Origin: an uncultured virus (IMG/VR IMGVR_UViG_3300005265_000018)
Taxonomy: Duplodnaviria > Heunggongvirae > Uroviricota > Caudoviricetes
Reading direction: 5' to 3' (one strand)
Virus record (IMG/VR): IMGVR_UViG_3300005265_000018
DNA: 33,705 bases
Of the stretch, positions 13,561-33,378 are shown piece by piece; within the stretch, counting starts at the first letter, position 1; the number at the start of each line of letters is the position of its first letter. Below the pieces are notes generated by a model, which saw only the letters and a list, made by a program, of their open reading frames with translations, had not been told where the DNA came from and did no database searches. The translations under genes and the position numbers were made by a program.

Positions 13561-13580
13561 ATTGTTTATTTAATATTTTG

Positions 13581-13664
13581 TGGATGGGGTTGGATTCGAA
13601 CCAACGAAGCCCAATGGACACCAGTTTTACAGACTGGGGGATTTAACCACTCTCCCACCCATCC
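13581..13664 (-). tRNA. tRNA-Tyr (anticodon GTA), bacterial type II, CCA not encoded
   Basis: Reverse complement folds fully: acceptor GGATGGG/CCCATCC + A73, D arm GGA/TCC with GG, anticodon stem CCAGT/ACTGG with loop CTGTAAA, long variable arm, T arm GTTGG-TTCGAAT-CCAAC. Confidence 0.97.
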
Positions 13665-19878: not shown

Positions 19879-20937
19879 TTATTTACTAATTAATTCAAAC
19901 CCTCTTTGTAATTTGTTTATATCCACCTTCTTTTCCTTGGCATAAATTTCCAGTAATTGTTCAATTGAATATTCCAAAATGCTTTCCCCCTCGCTATAAT
20001 GCAGTTTTTTCCTTTCGTGGGGCACTTGTTCTATGAATAAATAAGCTCCCTTATCACTAAATAAATCTTTTAATACTTCCTTTAAACTAATAATATCGGC
20101 TGTGGATAACTTTTTAGTAATCACTACTTTAACTATGCTGTTTTTTGGTAATTTTTTCAAATCCTCTTCGGTTGGATCTTCAAGTTTGTGGATTTCTCTG
20201 CATGGGAGCTTAATTGGCGTGGAGGTAAGTTGCTTTGATATAATATGAACAAATTTTTCTATCTCTCCCACTTCATGCGTAAAAATACTGCCAGCAATTA
20301 AAGTTTGTCCAGTTTTAGACATCTGACATTTATGTATATGCCCCCCAATAATAAGATTATATTTTTTTTCCAATTCTTTTTGGGGTAAAACAATTTCTCT
20401 AAATAAATTAGTATTAATCACAGAATTGGTCATAATATCAGAAATAGTATGATGAACCACCAATATTTCTCCCCCCTTCAACTGAGACATAATTTTTTTT
20501 GTACCCTCCTCCTCGGTTTCTACACCCAATTCAGCTTTAGTAAAATAAGGCACAAAAGTAATATTATTAATAGTTTCAATTTTATTAGTTACAACATGCC
20601 AAGATTTATTTTTTATTTCTTTTAAAAAATCCAAAGAAGTACGTCCATCTGCCATTTTTTCATGATTGCCAGCCACAATATAAATTGGTTGTTTAAAACG
20701 TTCAAGGAAATTAACAAATTCTTTAATTGTCTCACTGTCTGGATTTTTAATATCAAAAATATCACCGAGAAAAATAATCTTATCACAACTCCATAAAGAC
20801 TTTACAATCGTGTCCAAAATTTTTTGTTTTTCTGGTATACGATTATCCTTTACATAATCCGAATACGGCAACGATTGGCGATTGTGCATATCCCCTATAA
20901 TACCTAATGAACTTTTATTATTTACTATATTTGTCAT
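19879..20937 (-). CDS. sbcD: SbcD/Mre11-like metallophosphoesterase nuclease (T4 gp47-like)
   Basis: IIGDMH, FLGDIFD, AGNHE, VVHH, GGHIH, AGS; sbcC partner is downstream. Confidence 0.92.
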   Translation of the reverse strand: MTNIVNNKSSLGIIGDMHNRQSLPYSDYVKDNRIPEKQKILDTIVKSLWSCDKIIFLGDIFDIKNPDSETIKEFVNFLERFKQPIYIVAGNHEKMADGRTSLDFLKEIKNKSWHVVTNKIETINNITFVPYFTKAELGVETEEEGTKKIMSQLKGGEILVVHHTISDIMTNSVINTNLFREIVLPQKELEKKYNLIIGGHIHKCQMSKTGQTLIAGSIFTHEVGEIEKFVHIISKQLTSTPIKLPCREIHKLEDPTEEDLKKLPKNSIVKVVITKKLSTADIISLKEVLKDLFSDKGAYLFIEQVPHERKKLHYSEGESILEYSIEQLLEIYAKEKKVDINKLQRGFELISK

Positions 20938-25599: not shown

Positions 25600-25600
25600 A

Positions 25601-25786
25601 TTAATTATTCTTATTTTTATTATCTAAAAATATTGTAAAAACAATTAATGCACTAATCATAGCTATTGTTATAACTAAATCTCCCTCATTATATACCCGA
25701 TTTATAGGACTAAAAAACAAACAAACCAACATGTAGATAAGTCCCACGAAAAATCCTATTGCAAAAATTAAAAATTTTAACTGCAT
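25601..25786 (-). CDS. Small membrane protein (2 TM), probably leaderless
   Basis: ATG 25786 (MQLKFLIFAIGFF...) lies 6 nt after the predicted -10 box; two hydrophobic helices. Confidence 0.6.
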   Translation of the reverse strand: MQLKFLIFAIGFFVGLIYMLVCLFFSPINRVYNEGDLVITIAMISALIVFTIFLDNKNKNN

Positions 25787-25792
25787 ATAATT

Positions 25793-25850
25793 AGCGTAAT
25801 ACAATTTTTTTTACTTGTCAAGTGGATAACCATATTCTACTTGTGGATAA
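25793..25850 (-). promoter_or_regulatory. Leftward sigma70-type promoter with two DnaA-box-like sites
   Basis: TTGACA (25821-25816)-N17-TACGCT (25798-25793). TTATCCACT (25829-25821) overlaps the -35; perfect TTATCCACA at 25850-25842. Confidence 0.7.
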
Positions 25851-25877
25851 ATAGGGCTTTTAATGTTTTTAAATTTA

Positions 25878-25886
25878 TGTTATAAT
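25878..25886 (+). promoter_or_regulatory. Rightward extended -10 promoter (TGT-TATAAT)
   Basis: Perfect TGn-TATAAT in the divergent intergenic region, 30 nt before ATG 25917. Confidence 0.6.
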
Positions 25887-25916
25887 AAAAATAACCCCCA
25901 TTTAATAAATAAAAAA

Positions 25917-26216
25917 ATGCAAAATGAAAAACCTAAAATGTTTGTCTCTAAAGACATTACATTGGTTGCCACTTTAATAACATTGGAATTTCGGGTAGAA
26001 AGTACCGATTTCCAATATGAAGGTGATAAACCACGACCTGTTGGTTATTTTACCTTCAAAGAAACACCGCAATTACTTAAAGCCAAAGATGATTTTTGGC
26101 AAAAACGATTGTCGGTGGAGCCAATATCATTTATGACCACTATCAGGAGTATTAAGGCTCAATTAGCTAGTGTGTATAAAGCACCTTATTATCACGATTT
26201 TGATAAAAAGGAATAA
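25917..26216 (+). CDS. DUF5659-like small protein
   Basis: FVSKDITLVATLITLEF...F.F...L......F....L.VEP..F....RSIK matches my recollection of DUF5659; needs an HMM check. Confidence 0.55.
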   Translation: MQNEKPKMFVSKDITLVATLITLEFRVESTDFQYEGDKPRPVGYFTFKETPQLLKAKDDFWQKRLSVEPISFMTTIRSIKAQLASVYKAPYYHDFDKKE

Positions 26217-26236
26217 GGGAATAAATAATAAACAGT

Positions 26237-26266
26237 TTGACAAAAACTAGTTAATTTTAGTATTAT
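26237..26266 (+). promoter_or_regulatory. Sigma70-type promoter of the replication operon
   Basis: TTGACA (26237-26242)-N18-TATTAT (26261-26266). Confidence 0.65.
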
Positions 26267-26270
26267 TTTT

Positions 26271-26397
26271 ATGAAAAACCCCATTGGTCAAATGAAAAAT
26301 ATTAAATTGAAAAACTACTTAGTTCTATGCTTATTTTGGCGGTTTTTCCTGGCCAAAGGGGTTCTCCGTTAAAGGGCATGGAACTAAGTGGTTTTTT
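26271..26397 (+). ncRNA. Structured 5' leader of the replication initiator (long hairpin, loop/5'-end pairing, overlapping 33-aa uORF)
   Basis: 26310-26342 pairs with 26366-26396 (31 bp, 6 G-U). Loop 26343-26363 is complementary to 26277-26299. The hairpin ends in U6. Confidence 0.65.
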
Positions 26398-26422
26398 AAT
26401 TAATAAAAATATATGTCCACTT

Positions 26423-27346
26423 ATGGCAAAACGAAGATTAATAAATACAAAATTTTGGAGTGATAGTTTTATTGTAAAACTTCAACCTTTTGAAAAATAT
26501 TTATTTTTATATCTTTTAACCAATGAACATACAGAAATATGTGGTATTTATGAACTTTCTGTTGAGGTCATGAGCAGGGAAACTGGACTTGAAATTGAAA
26601 CCATTACAAACCTTTTAAAAGGGTTTAAGGACAAAATATATTACATAGATAACTGGGTCTATATTAAAAATTTTACAAAAAATCAATGTTCTAATAAAAA
26701 TATGAAAAGAGGAGCTGAAAGAAGTTTGCAAGAAATACCATCTAATATTTTGGCTAAAATTAAAGAAATAAATAAATCATTTAAAACCCTTTCAAACCCT
26801 TTTAAACCATTCGATAAACCTAAACCTAAACCTAAACCTAAACCTAAACCTTTTTTTCATTCCAGCGAGCTGGGGGCAAAAAAATTATTAAAAGAAAAAA
26901 GCCAAACAAACCAAACAATGGAAAAGAAAAAAAATGATACGGAAAAGGAAAAAATAAAAATAAAAAAAACAAAAGAAGATTCTGTGAAAAAATCTACAGG
27001 AATGAAAGATGATAATTTTTTTCCCGACCTGATGGCAGATGAAAAGGTTCATATTCGTCGGATTGGTTTATTTCAACAATTTAAGGGGGTAATATTTGAG
27101 AACAAAGAGCAATATAATTCATTTATCAAGCGTAATGTTCGGGCATCTCGTTTATTGGACGGATATAGCGATGAAAGGGTTATTGAGGTAATGGCTTGGT
27201 TGAATAAAAATGCTAATTTTAAGTGGACATTATGGACGGTGGGAAAATACATTGATATTAAAGATTTAAGTAGGCTTAAAAATTTTAAAGAAGATGAATC
27301 TCGTGAAGTGATTGGTACAGATTTTTCTTCTGGTAAAAAAATATGA
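26423..27346 (+). CDS. Phage replication initiator (replisome-organiser-like)
   Basis: MAKRRLINTKFWSD...EKYLFLYLLTNEH...GIY...SRETG N-terminal wHTH; central iteron-containing linker; upstream of helicase and primase. Confidence 0.8.
   Translation: MAKRRLINTKFWSDSFIVKLQPFEKYLFLYLLTNEHTEICGIYELSVEVMSRETGLEIETITNLLKGFKDKIYYIDNWVYIKNFTKNQCSNKNMKRGAERSLQEIPSNILAKIKEINKSFKTLSNPFKPFDKPKPKPKPKPKPFFHSSELGAKKLLKEKSQTNQTMEKKKNDTEKEKIKIKKTKEDSVKKSTGMKDDNFFPDLMADEKVHIRRIGLFQQFKGVIFENKEQYNSFIKRNVRASRLLDGYSDERVIEVMAWLNKNANFKWTLWTVGKYIDIKDLSRLKNFKEDESREVIGTDFSSGKKI
26774..26851 (+). repeat. Iteron-like array / probable replication origin inside the initiator gene
   Basis: Four 10-bp-period units (AAATCATTTA, AAACCCTTTC, AAACCCTTTT, AAACCATTCG), then (TAAACC)x6 and an A-rich tract. 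Confidence 0.7.
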
Positions 27347-27684
27347 AAGAAATCATTTATTCGGCTAATGGGGATAATGAAAAATTTTTATTAACAGACA
27401 AAGAATTTAGCGAAGCAAGGAGTGCGTGGAATACTAAAAAAAATTATTTTTGCCCTCGAATAGAAGCCAGTTTATCCCCATATTACTTATTTGCCAGGAC
27501 ACCAAAGTCGCAAGTTGGTTACGAAGTATTCGTTATGGGGGGAGAGGTATTAATATTTAAAAAATTAGATAAATATTTTAGGGGATATGAAAACACAAAA
27601 GTACTTATTAATTTAACCCCCGAACAGACAAAAAAATTAATTCCGATTGATGAGTTTTATCAATCCAAAAAAAATTATGGATAA
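27343..27684 (+). CDS. Hypothetical protein
   Basis: 113 aa; ATGA-coupled to the initiator and overlapping the helicase start. Confidence 0.7.
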   Translation: MKEIIYSANGDNEKFLLTDKEFSEARSAWNTKKNYFCPRIEASLSPYYLFARTPKSQVGYEVFVMGGEVLIFKKLDKYFRGYENTKVLINLTPEQTKKLIPIDEFYQSKKNYG

Positions 27685-28765: not shown

Positions 28766-29725
28766 ATGACAGAGCTAGAAAAAATAGTGAGAAAGTGTCA
28801 ACGGCAATTAACATCTTTTTCACGGATTAAAACATATTTGAATAATAGGGGGATAACAGATAAATTAATAGCCGATTTTGATATCGGTTATGGAAAATTT
28901 TATAACAAAAATTGGATAGTTATCCCCATAAAGGATGTAAATGGAAATTATCTCTTTTTAAAACTTCGTAAAGACCCTGAAGATAAAATGGAAAACAATA
29001 AATATAAATTTTATCCTGTCGGTAGTCAGGTTACTATTTTTGGCTGGAACGCCCTACTTAACACTGACATGATAACAATTGCGGAGGGGGAAATTGATGC
29101 TATGCTTTTGACATCTCGTGGCGTGCCAACTATTACTTCCACGGCTGGCGTGGGGACTTTTAAAAAAGAATGGTTGCAGGCATTGAAGGATTTAAAAAAG
29201 ATTTATATTGTGTTCGATTTGGATGAGCCAGGCGACAAGGGTGCTAATAAATTGGCACAGATGATTTTAGAGAATTTGGACTTTATTAAAGTGTATAAAA
29301 TTACTTTGCCGACAGAGGTGGGAATTGGTGGTGATATTACCGATTATTTTGTTAAGTTGAATGGCTCGGTGGATGATTTATTTTATAAACATGCCAACGA
29401 AGTGAAAAGGGAATATAAATTAGAAGAAATTCGTCCGCCTAGAAATAAAGATTTTAACAATAGTGGAATTACTAATACAGATATAGAAAATGCCAAACAG
29501 GTAAACTGTTCTAACTTTATAAAAGTGGAACGTAAAACCCATGATGGCATGTCAATAGCGTTTTGCCCATTTCATAAAGAAAAAGTTCCTAGTTTTGTTG
29601 CTTATCCCAATGGCAAAGGTTGGTACTGTTTTGGTTGTGGAAGAGGAGGAGATACCATTGATTTGGTGATGGAAATGTATTCATTGGATTTTAAGGAAGC
29701 AATTAAATTTATTTTAAATCAATAA
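28766..29725 (+). CDS. DnaG-type Toprim DNA primase with a C-terminal CHC2 zinc finger
   Basis: YLNNRGI, IVIPI, IAEGEIDAM, VFDLDEPG, DITDY, then CPFH...PSF...WYCFGC..GGDTIDLV...FKEA. Confidence 0.88.
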   Translation: MTELEKIVRKCQRQLTSFSRIKTYLNNRGITDKLIADFDIGYGKFYNKNWIVIPIKDVNGNYLFLKLRKDPEDKMENNKYKFYPVGSQVTIFGWNALLNTDMITIAEGEIDAMLLTSRGVPTITSTAGVGTFKKEWLQALKDLKKIYIVFDLDEPGDKGANKLAQMILENLDFIKVYKITLPTEVGIGGDITDYFVKLNGSVDDLFYKHANEVKREYKLEEIRPPRNKDFNNSGITNTDIENAKQVNCSNFIKVERKTHDGMSIAFCPFHKEKVPSFVAYPNGKGWYCFGCGRGGDTIDLVMEMYSLDFKEAIKFILNQ

Positions 29726-29968: not shown

Positions 29969-30006
29969 GTTATCCACTTGACAAGCATAAGAAAATGGTA
30001 TAAAAT
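29969..30006 (+). promoter_or_regulatory. Sigma70-type promoter with a DnaA-box-like site overlapping the -35
   Basis: GTTATCCACTTGACAAG; TTGACA (29978-29983)-N17-TAAAAT (30001-30006); ATG at 30016. Confidence 0.75.
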
Positions 30007-30015
30007 ATAAAGTAT

Positions 30016-30768
30016 ATGAAATTTACTAAAACGATAAATCATCCATTAATAACAATGGATAGAAATGAAGAAATAGAATATTTATATCAAACAGGTTATT
30101 ATAGTCAGGCTGATTTGGGTAGTTATTACCATATTAGTAGGGAACGAGTAAGACAAATTATTAAAAAATATAGTGGACAAGATGTCATAGATAATATAAA
30201 AAATAAACACCATGAACAAACGTTAATAAATCGGTATGGAGTTAATTACAGAGAAGTATTGGCGAAAAGGAGGGAATGGCATAAAAGGATGCAAGAAGTT
30301 AGGGCGGGAAAAAGATGGAATATTGATTATGATAGGTGTATTATTTGTGGGCGTACAGATTCAAAACATGCTAGTAGGGGGAGATGTGAAAGATGTTTAA
30401 GTAGAATAAGGTATGCTAATCCCACTGAAAGGGAAAAACATAAAAAAGCTCAATCAAAATATTTTCAAAAAAATAAAGAGAAAATTTTTAAACAAAGTAG
30501 AAAATATTTTAAAAAACGCTGGGAGACAGAACCAGAATTCAGAGAACAAATCAGGGAATATCAAAGAAAATATTACGCTCAACATAAAACAAATCCCAAA
30601 TATATTAAGAGAACCAAGGAATCTATGTTTAAGTATTATCATAAAAAAAGAGCTATCAAATTAGGAAAGATATGTGGTAAGTGTGGAACAATTTTTAAGC
30701 CAGTAAGAATTTCTGAGATCCCCCGTATTCGTTATAAATATGTACCTAATTGTGATTGTTATAAATAA
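30016..30768 (+). CDS. DNA-binding protein: sigma70 region 4-like HTH, zinc finger and basic helical region
   Basis: YSQADLGSYYHISRERVRQII; CIIC...HASRGRCERC; C-terminal CGKC...CDC. Confidence 0.7.
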   Translation: MKFTKTINHPLITMDRNEEIEYLYQTGYYSQADLGSYYHISRERVRQIIKKYSGQDVIDNIKNKHHEQTLINRYGVNYREVLAKRREWHKRMQEVRAGKRWNIDYDRCIICGRTDSKHASRGRCERCLSRIRYANPTEREKHKKAQSKYFQKNKEKIFKQSRKYFKKRWETEPEFREQIREYQRKYYAQHKTNPKYIKRTKESMFKYYHKKRAIKLGKICGKCGTIFKPVRISEIPRIRYKYVPNCDCYK

Positions 30769-30785
30769 TTAAAAATAAATTAATT

Positions 30786-31769
30786 ATGAGACAAAAATTA
30801 AGTGAAACATTAAAAAATCTAAACAAGAAATATGGTAAAGGTACTATAGGGGAAATTAAGAAAGAAGATGATAGGGGAAAAATAGACTGGGTTTCCACGA
30901 ATTGCTATTCTATGGATAGAGTAATGGGTGAAGGATTACCTATTGGCAGGATTATTGATATTTTTGGCACACCATCATCTGGTAAAAGTACGATGGGTTA
31001 TTATTTTATAGCCCAAATACAAAAGAATGGGGGAACAGCCGCTTTAATTGATGCTGAATACGCATTTGTATCCGAATATGCCCAAAAAATAGGAGTAGAT
31101 GTGGATAAACTTATTTTATCTCAACCAATAACAGGTGAAGAGGGTTTGGATATGGTGGAAAAATTAGTAAAGACAGGTGATGTGGATATAATTGTGGTGG
31201 ATTCTACGGCTGCTTTAGTGCCAAGTGATGAATTAAAAAAGGAAATTACCGATACTACTATTGCTTTGCAGGCAAGGATGATGTCAAAGGCATTACGAAT
31301 GATAACAGGTATAGTTGCTAGGACTAAAACAGTAATAATATTTATTAGTCAGGTGCGTGACAAAGTTGGGATGTTTGTAGGACCATCAACTGATAGCACG
31401 GGCGGAAAGGCTCTTAAATTTTATTCAGCCATTCGCCTAAAAGTGGATAAAATGAAATCTATTAAAGATAAGGATAATGTAGTAATTGGTAATCGCCTAA
31501 AGATACAAGCCACTAAAAACAAGGTTAGTATGCCCTTTGGATCCGCTGAAATTGATTTGTATTTTGAAAGGGGGATAGATGTTGTTGGTGATTTACTTGA
31601 TGTAGCAACTAATAGTGGAATAATTAATAGAATTGGTAATACATATTTCCATGATGACTTAAAACTGGGAACCAGTAGATCATTAACCATAACTTATTTA
31701 CAGGAAAACGAAACAGTGATTAAAGAAATTAAAAAGAAATTATATGAAAATCGGAAAACTAAAAATTAA
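30786..31769 (+). CDS. recA: RecA recombinase
   Basis: GLPIGRII, GTPSSGKST, IDAE, SQP.TGEEGL, IVVDS.AALVP, LQARMMSKALR, TGGKALKFYS, KNKV. Confidence 0.97.
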   Translation: MRQKLSETLKNLNKKYGKGTIGEIKKEDDRGKIDWVSTNCYSMDRVMGEGLPIGRIIDIFGTPSSGKSTMGYYFIAQIQKNGGTAALIDAEYAFVSEYAQKIGVDVDKLILSQPITGEEGLDMVEKLVKTGDVDIIVVDSTAALVPSDELKKEITDTTIALQARMMSKALRMITGIVARTKTVIIFISQVRDKVGMFVGPSTDSTGGKALKFYSAIRLKVDKMKSIKDKDNVVIGNRLKIQATKNKVSMPFGSAEIDLYFERGIDVVGDLLDVATNSGIINRIGNTYFHDDLKLGTSRSLTITYLQENETVIKEIKKKLYENRKTKN

Positions 31770-32022
31770 GAAAGGGTTTTTTTATGGAGCTGGTTCCCCT
31801 AAAATATATAATTGGAGTAAGGACAATTTTCATATTTATGGCGTGGGAATTAAAAAGGATTTACTTTCACAGTTTGATATATTAGAAATAGAAATTAACA
31901 ACCAATTTTATCAACTAGATACCCATGCCGCCCTACTGTTTGCCGAAAAATATAATAGCTATAAAGTGGCGAGGGGAACAACATTAGCGGTAGTAAGTAA
32001 ATCGTTATTATGTCCAGTATAA
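31744..32022 (+). CDS. Hypothetical protein
   Basis: 92 aa, overlapping the recA end. Confidence 0.65.
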   Translation: MKIGKLKIKKGFFYGAGSPKIYNWSKDNFHIYGVGIKKDLLSQFDILEIEINNQFYQLDTHAALLFAEKYNSYKVARGTTLAVVSKSLLCPV

Positions 32023-32115
32023 AAAAAAATATTATTAATAATTTTTATTATAATTATTTTTATTGTGATGTTTGTTTGGTGGGCGGTGTCCATAAATTAG
32101 TTTAATGAATTAATT

Positions 32116-32292
32116 ATGAATATAGATAAACCAAAATCTTGGAGAAAAGGTCAGACTATTTTTAACTTTTTAGAATTTTTAATGAGTAGGGGGTATAATT
32201 CCAATCAAAGTTATAGAATGGCAGACCCCTTTCATATTTCAGATGAAGAACTTGATGAATTGTGGGGGGAATTTATAAAAGAGGTAAAGTAA
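32116..32292 (+). CDS. Small phage protein (58 aa)
   Basis: MNIDKPKSWRKGQTIFNFL...ADPFHISDEELDEL; RxGQ...DPF..D pattern. Confidence 0.7.
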   Translation: MNIDKPKSWRKGQTIFNFLEFLMSRGYNSNQSYRMADPFHISDEELDELWGEFIKEVK

Positions 32293-32299
32293 TCTAATT

Positions 32300-32440
32300 A
32301 TGACCCCTCAAGAATTTAAAAGACTTTGTAAGAAATATAATGTTAAATTAAAAGATTTGCCAGCGTTTCCCGGAAAATTTACTGATGACCAATGGATACA
32401 TACGATTAAAGTAATTGGAGAAAGTAGGGAAGGTAGATAG
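32300..32440 (+). CDS. Small hypothetical protein (46 aa)
   Basis: MTPQEFKRLCKKYNVKLKDLPAFPGKFTDDQWIHTIKVIGESREGR*. Confidence 0.55.
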   Translation: MTPQEFKRLCKKYNVKLKDLPAFPGKFTDDQWIHTIKVIGESREGR

Positions 32441-32478
32441 AGTAGTGGGCAAGTTAAATAATAATTAAATTAAATAAT

Positions 32479-33378
32479 ATGTGTCAATTTTTAAGTTTAA
32501 TAGTAACAAAGTCGGGTAAAATTTATGGTGATGGTTCTTATGACCAACACGAACGATTAATAGAAGATAATGAAAAAAAAGACAAAGAATTAATAGATGA
32601 TAAAAATCCGCCATATAATACTTTTGCAAGAGTGGAAGTGGTGCCGATAGATAAAAATATTTTTAACCATAAATTATCTAATTGGGAGGTTAAAGTTGAT
32701 GAAAGAATAAAACCTGAGTGGTGGAATTTTAATTATGATAAAAAATGCATTAACAGATTGAAAAAAGTTTTTAAAGAACAATTTTTAATTGGTGGTGAAT
32801 ATGAAACAATAGATAAAGATTATAGATTTTTGAAGGATGTAAAAATAGGTATTTTAAAAAGTAAAATCGGTGAAATGTGGGGTAACTCTTCGGTTGGTGA
32901 AATGCTGGATAACTCTTCGATCGGTAAAATGTGGGATAACTCTTCGGTTGGTAGAATGTGGGAGAACTCTTCGGTGGGTAAAATGCTGGATAGCCCTTCG
33001 GTGGGTAAAATGCTGGATAGCCCTTCGGTGGGTAAAATGCTGGATAACTCTTCGGTTGGTGAAATGCGGAATAGCTCTTCGGTTGGTAGAATGTGGGATA
33101 ACTCTTCGGTCGGTAGAATGTGGGAGAACTCTTCGGTTGGTGAAATGCGGAATAGCTCTTCGGTTGGTGAAATGCGGAATAGCTCTTCGGTTGGTAGAAT
33201 GTGGGATAACTCTTCGGTCGGTAGAATGTGGGAGAACTCTTCGGTCGGTGAAATGCTGAATAGCTCTTCGGTGGGTAAAATGCTGGATAACTCTTCGGTC
33301 GGTGAAATGCTGGATAACTCTTCGGTCGGTGAAATGTGGGATAACTCTTCGGTCGGTAGAAGGTGGGTAATAATATAG
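32479..33378 (+). CDS. Tandem-repeat (putative beta-solenoid) protein; probably extends to TAG 33479 after a 1-nt frame break
   Basis: N-terminal MCQFLS...H...RVE domain, then 18 x G[EKR]M[WLR][DEGN][NS][SP]S[VI]. Confidence 0.8.
   Translation: MCQFLSLIVTKSGKIYGDGSYDQHERLIEDNEKKDKELIDDKNPPYNTFARVEVVPIDKNIFNHKLSNWEVKVDERIKPEWWNFNYDKKCINRLKKVFKEQFLIGGEYETIDKDYRFLKDVKIGILKSKIGEMWGNSSVGEMLDNSSIGKMWDNSSVGRMWENSSVGKMLDSPSVGKMLDSPSVGKMLDNSSVGEMRNSSSVGRMWDNSSVGRMWENSSVGEMRNSSSVGEMRNSSSVGRMWDNSSVGRMWENSSVGEMLNSSSVGKMLDNSSVGEMLDNSSVGEMWDNSSVGRRWVII
32869..33360 (+). repeat. 27-bp coding tandem repeat, 18 full copies
   Basis: Consensus GGT-GAA/AAA/AGA-ATG-TGG/CTG/CGG-GAT-AAC-TCT-TCG-GTN; contiguous, no spacers. 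Confidence 0.97.

Follow-up and report, generated by a model that had tools for sequence, protein, structure and literature searches.

Control of initiator expression by leader RNAs is well known in plasmids (pT181, pIP501, and IncB) and in the satellite P4; for ordinary tailed phages it is barely described, and for those that infect uncultivated lineages (Patescibacteria, for instance) not at all. Here, we analyze a leader RNA in a 33,705-nucleotide stretch of DNA from an uncultured virus of the Caudoviricetes (IMG/VR record IMGVR_UViG_3300005265_000018; this whole stretch is referred to as the window). The leader precedes the gene of a DnaD-like replisome organizer and is probably an RNA switch that meters the expression of replication genes. 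It comprises a 5′-proximal segment (A) and a long hairpin (arms B and B′) that ends in a U-run and carries in its apex a sequence (A′) complementary to A. The A-B-A′-B′-U-run layout recurs upstream of homologous genes.

In the plasmids pT181 and pIP501, replication is controlled by attenuators located right before the rep start codons, in which a pre-emptor prevents formation of the terminator (PMC5703833). These attenuators are the closest known systems in logic and position. They share with the phage leader a terminator of the rho-independent type just upstream of the initiator start and an alternative upstream pairing, RNA–RNA pairing being the step that decides (PMC5703833). Of the two comparisons drawn in the initial annotation of this DNA, with pT181/pIP501 and with the IncI/IncB plasmids, the former is the closer one. 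The plasmid systems differ in that an antisense promoter lies within the leader, which is also longer (~320 nt for pIP501-type plasmids, compared with 60–125 nt here), and the locus studied here belongs to a phage with a DnaD-like organizer, not to a Rep_trans or PriCT plasmid. A scan for − strand promoters between 25500 and 27000 gave sites only at 26291, 26254, and 25863, all firing away from the leader, and none between 26292 and 27000.

In P4, expression of the replication genes is stopped by premature termination, and the segments seqA and seqC pair with the CI RNA, which belongs to the same sense transcript (PMC4825925). With sense-RNA segments and no antisense promoter in either case, P4 is the closest system for self-control by a sense RNA. 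CI differs in being a processed, stable RNA with two targets, whose sequence and structure are conserved in the C4 family; C4 (RF01695) has no match in the window, even at E-values up to 10, and action in trans is purely hypothetical for the leader described here. A further relative in logic is IsrK of the Gifsy-1 prophage, where transcription from one promoter yields both an RNA that terminates early and a longer mRNA made by read-through, the former acting on the latter (PMC4825925). IsrK activates translation of a downstream open reading frame (ORF) and has no sequence relation to the present leader, for which two isoforms are hypothetical.

The repZ/repA genes of the IncI-α/IncB plasmids are controlled by a leader peptide and a pseudoknot, in which the loop of an upstream hairpin pairs next to the rep ribosome-binding site. 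This control needs an antisense Inc RNA and coupling between the leader stop codon and the start of rep. Both systems have an ORF for a leader peptide and a loop engaged in long-range pairing near the start codon of the replication gene. However, the topology is reversed in the phage leader, and its upstream ORF (uORF) in the window stops 50 nt from the initiator, a gap of 4 nt being found in only six homologs. The analogy thus fails on topology, on coupling, and on the missing antisense promoter.

Structure of the leader hairpin

The hairpin spans positions 26310–26396 of the + strand. The lower part of its 5′ arm (B, 26310–26342) is formed by 26310–26332, which pairs with 26374–26396 through 23 base pairs (bp; 19 Watson–Crick and 4 U·G), and the upper part by 26335–26342, which pairs with 26366–26373 through 8 bp (6 Watson–Crick and 2 G·U), with zero mismatches in both. 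The 3′ arm (B′) covers 26366–26396, and the 23 nt of the apical loop (A′) lie at 26343–26365. In total, there are 31 bp, 25 of them Watson–Crick and 6 G–U, and the stem can be extended to 26305–26401. A U6 tract (26392–26397), the putative terminator tail, comes directly after the stem ending in ...GUGG, and 25 nt then separate it from the organizer ATG at 26423. These counts agree in full with the initial annotation.

Folding of 26265–26430 yields −57.3 kcal/mol (z = −6.9), an energy that none of 200 shuffled sequences equals. The window contains 65 inverted repeats whose arms are separated by no more than 120 nt, and the hairpin (repeat I1) is the longest of them. Its + strand RNA folds with −50.1 kcal/mol, compared with −27.8 kcal/mol for the − strand RNA. 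All six wobble pairs are one-sided, on the + strand, as expected of a structure selected in the + strand transcript and as the initial annotation had argued.

As in intrinsic terminators, a G+C-containing stem is followed by a U-run. The 31 bp and the loop of 23 nt are atypical for a terminator, and a terminator scan that allows loops of 3–8 nt does not list the hairpin. The window has no other convincing intrinsic terminator.

Segment A (26277–26299, + strand) lies close to the 5′ end of the transcript. Its first part (26277–26290) is complementary to 26350–26363, with 12 Watson–Crick pairs, one G·U pair, and one A·A mismatch, and its second part (26294–26299) forms six Watson–Crick pairs with 26343–26348. 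Twenty of the 23 loop bases are opposite the 5′ segment, and 19 of these 20 pair. The loop complementarity proposed in the initial annotation therefore holds, except that the A·A mismatch had gone unmentioned. It exceeds that of shuffled flanks (p = 0.005–0.007), and A/A′ is the sole such complementary pair in the window. Extra copies of A or A′ that could serve as targets in trans do not occur in the window beyond chance (six matches with up to three mismatches, 3.6 expected).

We folded the leader as a growing transcript. When folding stops at 26365, the A:A′ helix is the minimum free energy (MFE) structure, with −25.7 kcal/mol. From 26385 on, the MFE structure is the hairpin, which reaches −51.5 kcal/mol at 26402.

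Contigs from the probable source sample span the leader region with zero differences. A second DNA run gave fragments only, none of which covers the leader RNA and hairpin (26273–26402), so that it supplies no natural variant for covariation; a 35-nt piece at 26227–26261 with five differing letters reaches the promoter. Among RNA runs, none was listed as containing the sequence.

Recurrence upstream of homologous organizer genes

Homologous loci were collected as relatives of the N-terminal domain of the organizer. Viral contigs contributed 5 and 80 loci, metagenomes 80, and genome bins 14; a further 74 viral and 192 metagenome relatives lie outside this locus set. Merging of identical upstream regions left 138 loci, 74 in set 1 and 64 in set 2. 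We scored hairpins of −12 kcal/mol or lower and at most 100 nt that precede a T-run and lie no more than 50 nt from the ATG, and found them in 37 of the 138 loci. Upstream sequence of 250 nt or more is available for 135 loci; among these, the hairpin and T-run are present in 33 of the 65 in which the upstream 120 nt are non-coding and in 3 of the 70 in which they are coding. This contrast indicates that about half of the relatives whose organizer gene starts a transcription unit have the element. In four loci (L040, L057, L070, and L076), only 6–8 nt separate the T-run from the ATG, which leaves no room for a promoter and places the hairpin in the 5′ untranslated region of the initiator itself.

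A common layout recurs among the loci, with unrelated sequences: promoter, segment A, arm B, apex A′, arm B′, U-run, and ATG. The A-B-A′-B′ order was seen by eye in L005, L006, L008, L012, and L014. The sequences of A and A′ differ by locus: the window has AACCCCATTGGTCA, for example, whereas its closest relative, L006 (71% amino-acid identity), has AAACACGCAAA. The initial annotation had staked its reading on conserved structure ahead of homologous initiators, and hairpin, U-run, and apex pairing do recur there. The hairpins have been selected in the + strand: 33 of the 37 fold better as + strand RNA, with 118 G–U pairs against 3 A–C 1×1 mismatches, a strand comparison that is somewhat biased by the use of + strand folding to find the homolog hairpins.

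Promoters match at 12 of 12 positions in L039 and L050 and at 11 of 12 in L018, L032, and the window. Across the loci, strong promoters are located 4–36 nt upstream of A. Where the promoter is clear, A starts 4–32 nt past the −10 hexamer, and the distance from the −10 to the U-run is 62–128 nt.

Outer stems of 17–23 bp in L006, L014, L040, and L076, together with the 31 mismatch-free bp of the window, would be suitable substrates for RNase III. Such processing occurs in the T7 early region and in the λ N leader, and a cut in the duplex of a read-through mRNA would here detach the initiator message from the leader or adjust its stability. Stems are only 7–9 bp in L018, L032, L039, and L050, too short by the rules known for this enzyme, and both the U-run and the A:A′ pairing would be left unexplained. 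We therefore consider a processing site very unlikely as the function of the hairpin.

Six leaders (L015, L043, L046, L076, L080, and L090) have a three-way junction, in which an outer stem of 20–23 bp surrounds two inner hairpins. Pairing between the 5′ segment and the apex is not significant in these leaders, which may represent a second structural variant of the element.

The element matches no known RNA family. At gathering score, the only Rfam 15 match in the window is a tRNA-Tyr at 13581–13664, and at E-values up to 10 the region 26150–26500 gave only sub-threshold microRNA- and snoRNA-like matches (11.9–20.6 bits, compared with gathering scores of 50–211). The Rfam search that the initial annotation had called for was also run on 20 homologous loci, with zero matches. 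A tRNA or transfer-messenger RNA (tmRNA) identity of the leader was rejected. A blastn search of 25600–27400 against deposited phage genomes returned no match, and neither did a search of the viral contigs for the exact 24-nt loop pattern. Literature searches returned nothing describing such a leader, which is no proof of its being unpublished.

Apex complementarity and alternative structures

Conservation of the A:A′ pairing was tested at the level of the architecture and not by alignment-based R-scape. The 80 nt preceding each hairpin were scored for ungapped helices with the hairpin interior, and the scores were compared with those for dinucleotide shuffles of the flank; this test replaced RNAduplex on whole hairpins, which reached p ≤ 0.05 in 9 of 27 loci and gave long gapped duplexes that are difficult to interpret. 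In set 1, 14 of 27 loci reached p ≤ 0.05 and 12 reached p ≤ 0.01 (Fisher p = 3e-13), and in 11 loci the own flank outscored the flanks of all 26 other loci. Set 2, which is independent and was analyzed afterwards, gave 3 of 10 loci (Fisher p = 1e-4). With both sets pooled, 17 of 37 loci reached p ≤ 0.05 (Fisher p = 1e-14), whereas the first 80 nt of the coding sequence, used as a control, gave 3 of 37 (Fisher p = 0.38).

The signal is specific to the apex (10 of 21 loci, Fisher p = 3e-9). Complementarity of the flank to the 5′ arm is absent (2 of 27, Fisher p = 0.27) and that to the 3′ arm marginal (3 of 27, Fisher p = 0.089). In this respect, the leaders differ from those of pT181 and pIP501, where the terminator 5′ arm is the partner of the pre-emptor. 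Pairing in the A:A′ helices is mostly perfect and of the Watson–Crick type.

We examined 18 A:A′ loci as growing transcripts. In all of them, RNA that ends with A′ has an MFE fold in which A and A′ are paired and the 5′ arm is looped out, and in 17 the complete leader adopts the hairpin and A:A′ is absent; as A and A′ had been picked for complementarity, these folds demonstrate feasibility and are not independent proof. Only 6–9 nt follow A′ within the hairpin in L012, L018, L032, L039, L050, and L062, and in L039 only 2 nt lie between A and the hairpin. In these short-hairpin homologs, A′ abuts or overlaps the 3′ arm, so that both helices cannot coexist and must be alternative structures. For these six loci, this speaks against the pseudoknot considered in the initial annotation, if taken as a static structure. 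In the long-hairpin members (the window, L006, L014, and L040), A′ touches the loop and the upper stem only, and exclusivity in the window is partial.

The same features allow us to judge whether the hairpin is simply a fixed terminator behind a small-RNA gene. A short RNA would then be made constitutively, and the downstream genes would depend on a protein antiterminator, a phage-modified polymerase, or an IsrK-like action of the short RNA, with A:A′ contributing to stability or compaction only. At λ PR′-tR′, read-through is achieved by a protein antiterminator, and a strong promoter, a short transcript, a strong terminator, and an operon form the layout of such Q-type systems. The very stable hairpin, the absence of another convincing terminator noted above, and a segment resembling sigma region 4 in the protein encoded at 30016 are in line with this explanation, as is IsrK, with short and read-through forms from one promoter (PMC4825925). 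However, a fixed terminator does not account for complementarity that is specific to the apex, nor for the overlap of A′ with the terminator stem in the short-hairpin homologs, and profile searches found no Q-like or N-like gene in the window. We regard this explanation as unlikely.

Transcription attenuation as a working model

We consider it most likely that the element is an attenuator-type leader, so far undescribed, of replication operons in phages. Gating of the replication operon, probably by attenuation, had been put forward in the initial annotation and is still the best reading. In its specific form, a cis-acting transcription attenuator of ~125 nt with its own strong promoter, which gates an operon of organizer, helicase, and primase, it receives about half of our confidence. 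The reading draws on the growing-transcript folds, with an early A:A′ helix and a later hairpin that exclude each other in the short-hairpin homologs.

According to this model, the transcript would start near 26271–26274, and segment A (26277–26299) would be made first. As soon as A′ (26343–26363) emerges, A would pair with it, enclosing the 5′ arm and occupying the apex, and would in this way act as an antiterminator. Synthesis of the 3′ arm (26366–26396) would then allow the more stable 31-bp hairpin to form and, together with U6, to stop transcription 25 nt before the ATG. Occupation of A, or time for refolding, would tip the outcome toward termination. For the long-hairpin members, the effect would be kinetic, hairpin closure being slowed. 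We infer that the hairpin terminates transcription and that A:A′ opposes termination; the candidate signals considered below are likewise proposals.

Several observations weigh against this reading. The detector demanded a T-run, so that the terminator-like appearance of the homolog hairpins is partly built in. At −42 to −51 kcal/mol, the hairpin of the window greatly exceeds the A:A′ helix (about −25 kcal/mol) in stability, and the lower stem of the hairpin does not overlap with A′; in the window, A:A′ may therefore hold back termination only a little, or may form a pseudoknot together with the lower stem. The partner of a classical antiterminator is the terminator 5′ arm, for which there is no signal here. 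Twenty of the 37 hairpin loci have no significant A:A′ pairing, and several of them (L015, L043, L046, L076, and L080) have the three-way junction instead. The A:A′ helices, obtained with a symmetric score, contain 18 G–U and 25 A–C oppositions; this lack of a G–U excess means that they offer no proof at the RNA level. Finally, the loci are not phylogenetically independent, as identical upstream regions alone were merged.

Antisense RNAs usually present their recognition loops in the apex of a stable hairpin. Terminated leaders, in which A would be free, might in the same manner display A′ in the apex and, acting in trans, pair with segment A of nascent transcripts, causing a dose-dependent shut-off of the replication genes like that by the P4 CI RNA; among the possible triggers we favor this one, but put it forward tentatively and doubt it more than we believe it. 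The leader could, with a similarly small chance, be a self-titrating sense RNA, whose pairing in trans with A of nascent or sister-genome leaders would block the cis antiterminator and so halt transcription ahead of the organizer gene. The phage would then count its genome copies, or the time since infection, with no antisense promoter or protein, and the hypervariable A/A′ would be an incompatibility or immunity determinant between related phages. The variation of A/A′ among relatives fits a specificity determinant, and equally neutral compensatory drift. A protein trigger is also conceivable, with the organizer itself, the upstream 117-aa ORF, or the host DnaA as candidates.

The attenuator reading provides a testable model of how such phages would meter their replication module. 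As an RNA motif of definable architecture (DnaA box, promoter, 5′ segment, complementary-apex terminator, and organizer gene) in dozens of environmental phage contigs, the element is a candidate family for RNA-motif catalogues. An apex-directed antiterminator of 60–125 nt, with many apparently orthogonal variants, would be a compact natural design.

Promoter, transcript start, and upstream reading frame

A sigma-70-type promoter, TTGACA-N18-TATTAT, is located in the intergenic region at 26237–26266 (+ strand), as initially annotated. It matches at 11 of 12 positions and is one of only three such 11/12 sites in the window. The ORF listing contains a candidate uORF of 33 codons at 26271–26372 (+ strand), with a second in-frame ATG at 26292 (26 codons); its peptide is not conserved. 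Transcription usually starts ~7 nt downstream of the −10 hexamer, and A26271 is only 5 nt past it. A strictly leaderless AUG is therefore uncertain, and G26273 or A26274 are at least as likely as start sites. Of the leaderless 33-codon uORF of the initial annotation, the reading frame is real, and its leaderless nature is in doubt. The stop codon (26370–26372) lies 50 nt upstream of the initiator ATG, and the uORF of the window is therefore unable to couple to the initiator.

The initial annotation had also proposed control coupled to translation, in which a leaderless or short-leader uORF would run from the RNA 5′ end through the hairpin. In pyrBI, the pyrL leader ORF crosses an intrinsic terminator, and coupling of ribosome and polymerase prevents the hairpin from forming (PMC5021804). 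Two variants can be envisaged for the phage leaders: a close ribosome would block the terminator, as in pyrBI, or a ribosome on A would free A′, as in trp. In relatives, a uORF that ends beside the initiator ATG could also deliver ribosomes there. About a dozen homologs have a uORF geometry like that of pyrBI; unlike in pyrBI, the uORF is not universal, and there are no U-rich pause or UTP-sensing features to point to.

Reading frames of this kind are enriched. In 22 of the 37 loci, an ATG ORF of at least 20 codons starts at most 60 nt upstream of the hairpin and extends past its middle, compared with 11.1 ± 2.4 for shuffled flanks (0 of 300 reach 22). However, frames free of stops across the hairpins show no strand bias (+ strand, 59 of 111; − strand, 57 of 111), and the peptides have no common motif. 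An ATG exactly 7 nt after the predicted −10 is present in L006, L052, L076, and L161 (binomial p = 5e-4, post hoc), and one 4–9 nt after it in 7 of 19 loci (binomial p = 5e-3, post hoc). The promoters behind the former result score only 8–9 of 12, and clear A:A′ loci with promoters of 11–12 of 12 offer no usable uORF: it is missing in L032 and L050, the ATG is inside the −10 in L039, and the ORF at +7 has only 8 codons in L018. The stop codon precedes the main ATG by 4 nt in L006, L031, L038, L052, L093, and L161, whereas the AUG of the window, 5 nt past the −10, opens a uORF whose stop is distant from the initiator. Four loci with clear A:A′ pairing (L004, L032, L050, and L062) have no leader uORF of at least 15 codons. 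Translation coupling is accordingly improbable as the general mechanism, although the enrichment leaves room for a role in some members.

The hydrophobic uORF peptide was also considered as a type I toxin. We rejected this candidate, as the peptides bear no relation to one another and many members lack the ORF.

The spacer and −10 of the promoter (26242–26269, + strand) and the hairpin 5′ arm (26310–26337) are direct repeats of each other, with 79% identity (repeat family D3). In transcripts that arrive from upstream, this repeat could pair with the 3′ arm. A like repeat of promoter region and hairpin 5′ arm is present in L038.

Genomic context and DnaA boxes

The window is phage-like, with ~32% G+C and genes for virion proteins (an internal virion protein and an M23 peptidase). 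A leftward block contains recombination and repair genes (SbcCD-like and SNF2 helicase), and a rightward replication block starts at about 25.86 kb, with a small ORF of 117 aa (25863–26216), the organizer, a DnaB-like helicase, a DnaG-type primase, and RecA. The organizer gene (26423–27346, + strand) encodes a DnaD-like helicase loader or replisome organizer that matches phrog_1701 (E = 3.9e-17) and phrog_6251 (E = 3.1e-14), in both cases from residue 1; the protein has no Pfam match. It is followed by the helicase at 27647, the primase at 28766, and RecA at 30786. A Shine–Dalgarno sequence is absent in all 34 genes examined, and A/U-rich tracts precede the start codons. Relatives of the organizer in binned genomes fall into Patescibacteria-type bins in 6 of 14 cases, and the hosts are probably uncultivated Patescibacteria. 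The source run bears the label marine sediment metagenome.

A cluster of DnaA-box-like sites on the − strand (25732–25850) consists of a perfect TTATCCACA at 25842–25850 and one-mismatch sites at 25821–25829 and 25732–25740. It is located in a divergent intergenic region, at the minimum of the cumulative GC skew, and is likely an origin or a DnaA-regulated control region, as judged from these sequence features. With at most one mismatch, the window has 24 DnaA-box matches, compared with 13.95 ± 3.48 in shuffles. Further perfect TTATCCACA boxes are found at 20101–20109 and 31100–31108, and a site at 26171–26179 is listed among the DnaA-box-like sites of the window.

We searched the homologous loci for the DnaA-box core, TTATCCAC. 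In 27 of the 138 loci, it occurs no more than 260 nt ahead of the organizer ATG, compared with 1.0 ± 1.0 in shuffles, and it is more frequent in hairpin loci (17 of 37) than in the others (10 of 101; Fisher p = 1e-5). It mostly ends 67–111 nt before the hairpin, just upstream of the leader promoter; in L039, L050, L076, L125, and L161, for example, it is found 145–200 nt upstream of the organizer ATG. The leader thus appears to sit in an origin or initiator control region.

This setting raises the question of whether the element itself belongs to the origin. DnaA box, promoter, and hairpin would then mark the origin, and the transcript would activate it through supercoiling or an R-loop, or would serve as a primer; alternatively, the repeats would be protein sites or single-stranded DNA hairpins. 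The enrichment of the TTATCCAC core upstream of hairpin loci, the position of the 25732–25850 cluster at the GC-skew minimum, and the lack of an RNA-specific G–U bias in A:A′ are consistent with such a role. On the other hand, the strong + strand G–U bias of the hairpins favors an RNA structure (or a + strand single-stranded one) over sites in duplex DNA, protein sites would be conserved, which the A/A′ sequences are not, and the boxes of the window are ~400 nt away, with an ORF in between. An origin element in place of an attenuator is distinctly unlikely, but the two functions are compatible and can coexist.

Beyond the leader, an 11/12 promoter (TTGACA-N17-TAAAAT, 29978–30006) is located directly before a 250-aa ORF (30016–30768) with a weak match to sigma-70 region 4 (E = 1.1e-4), which may encode a phage transcription factor. 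Another 11/12 promoter, on the − strand (TTGACA-N18-TATTAT, 32487–32458), points into 457 nt without an ORF of at least 70 aa (32022–32479), a region that may give rise to another non-coding transcript or be a second control region.

Within the organizer gene, a (TAAACC)n tandem repeat (26815–26844) encodes a KP-repeat linker, and AAACCnTTTnAAACC-like direct repeats are found near it (26598–26805). Relatives of the organizer have low-complexity linkers of the NS, SD, or NL type at the position of the KP linker. The phage also encodes a tRNA-Tyr (GTA), at 13580–13664 on the − strand.

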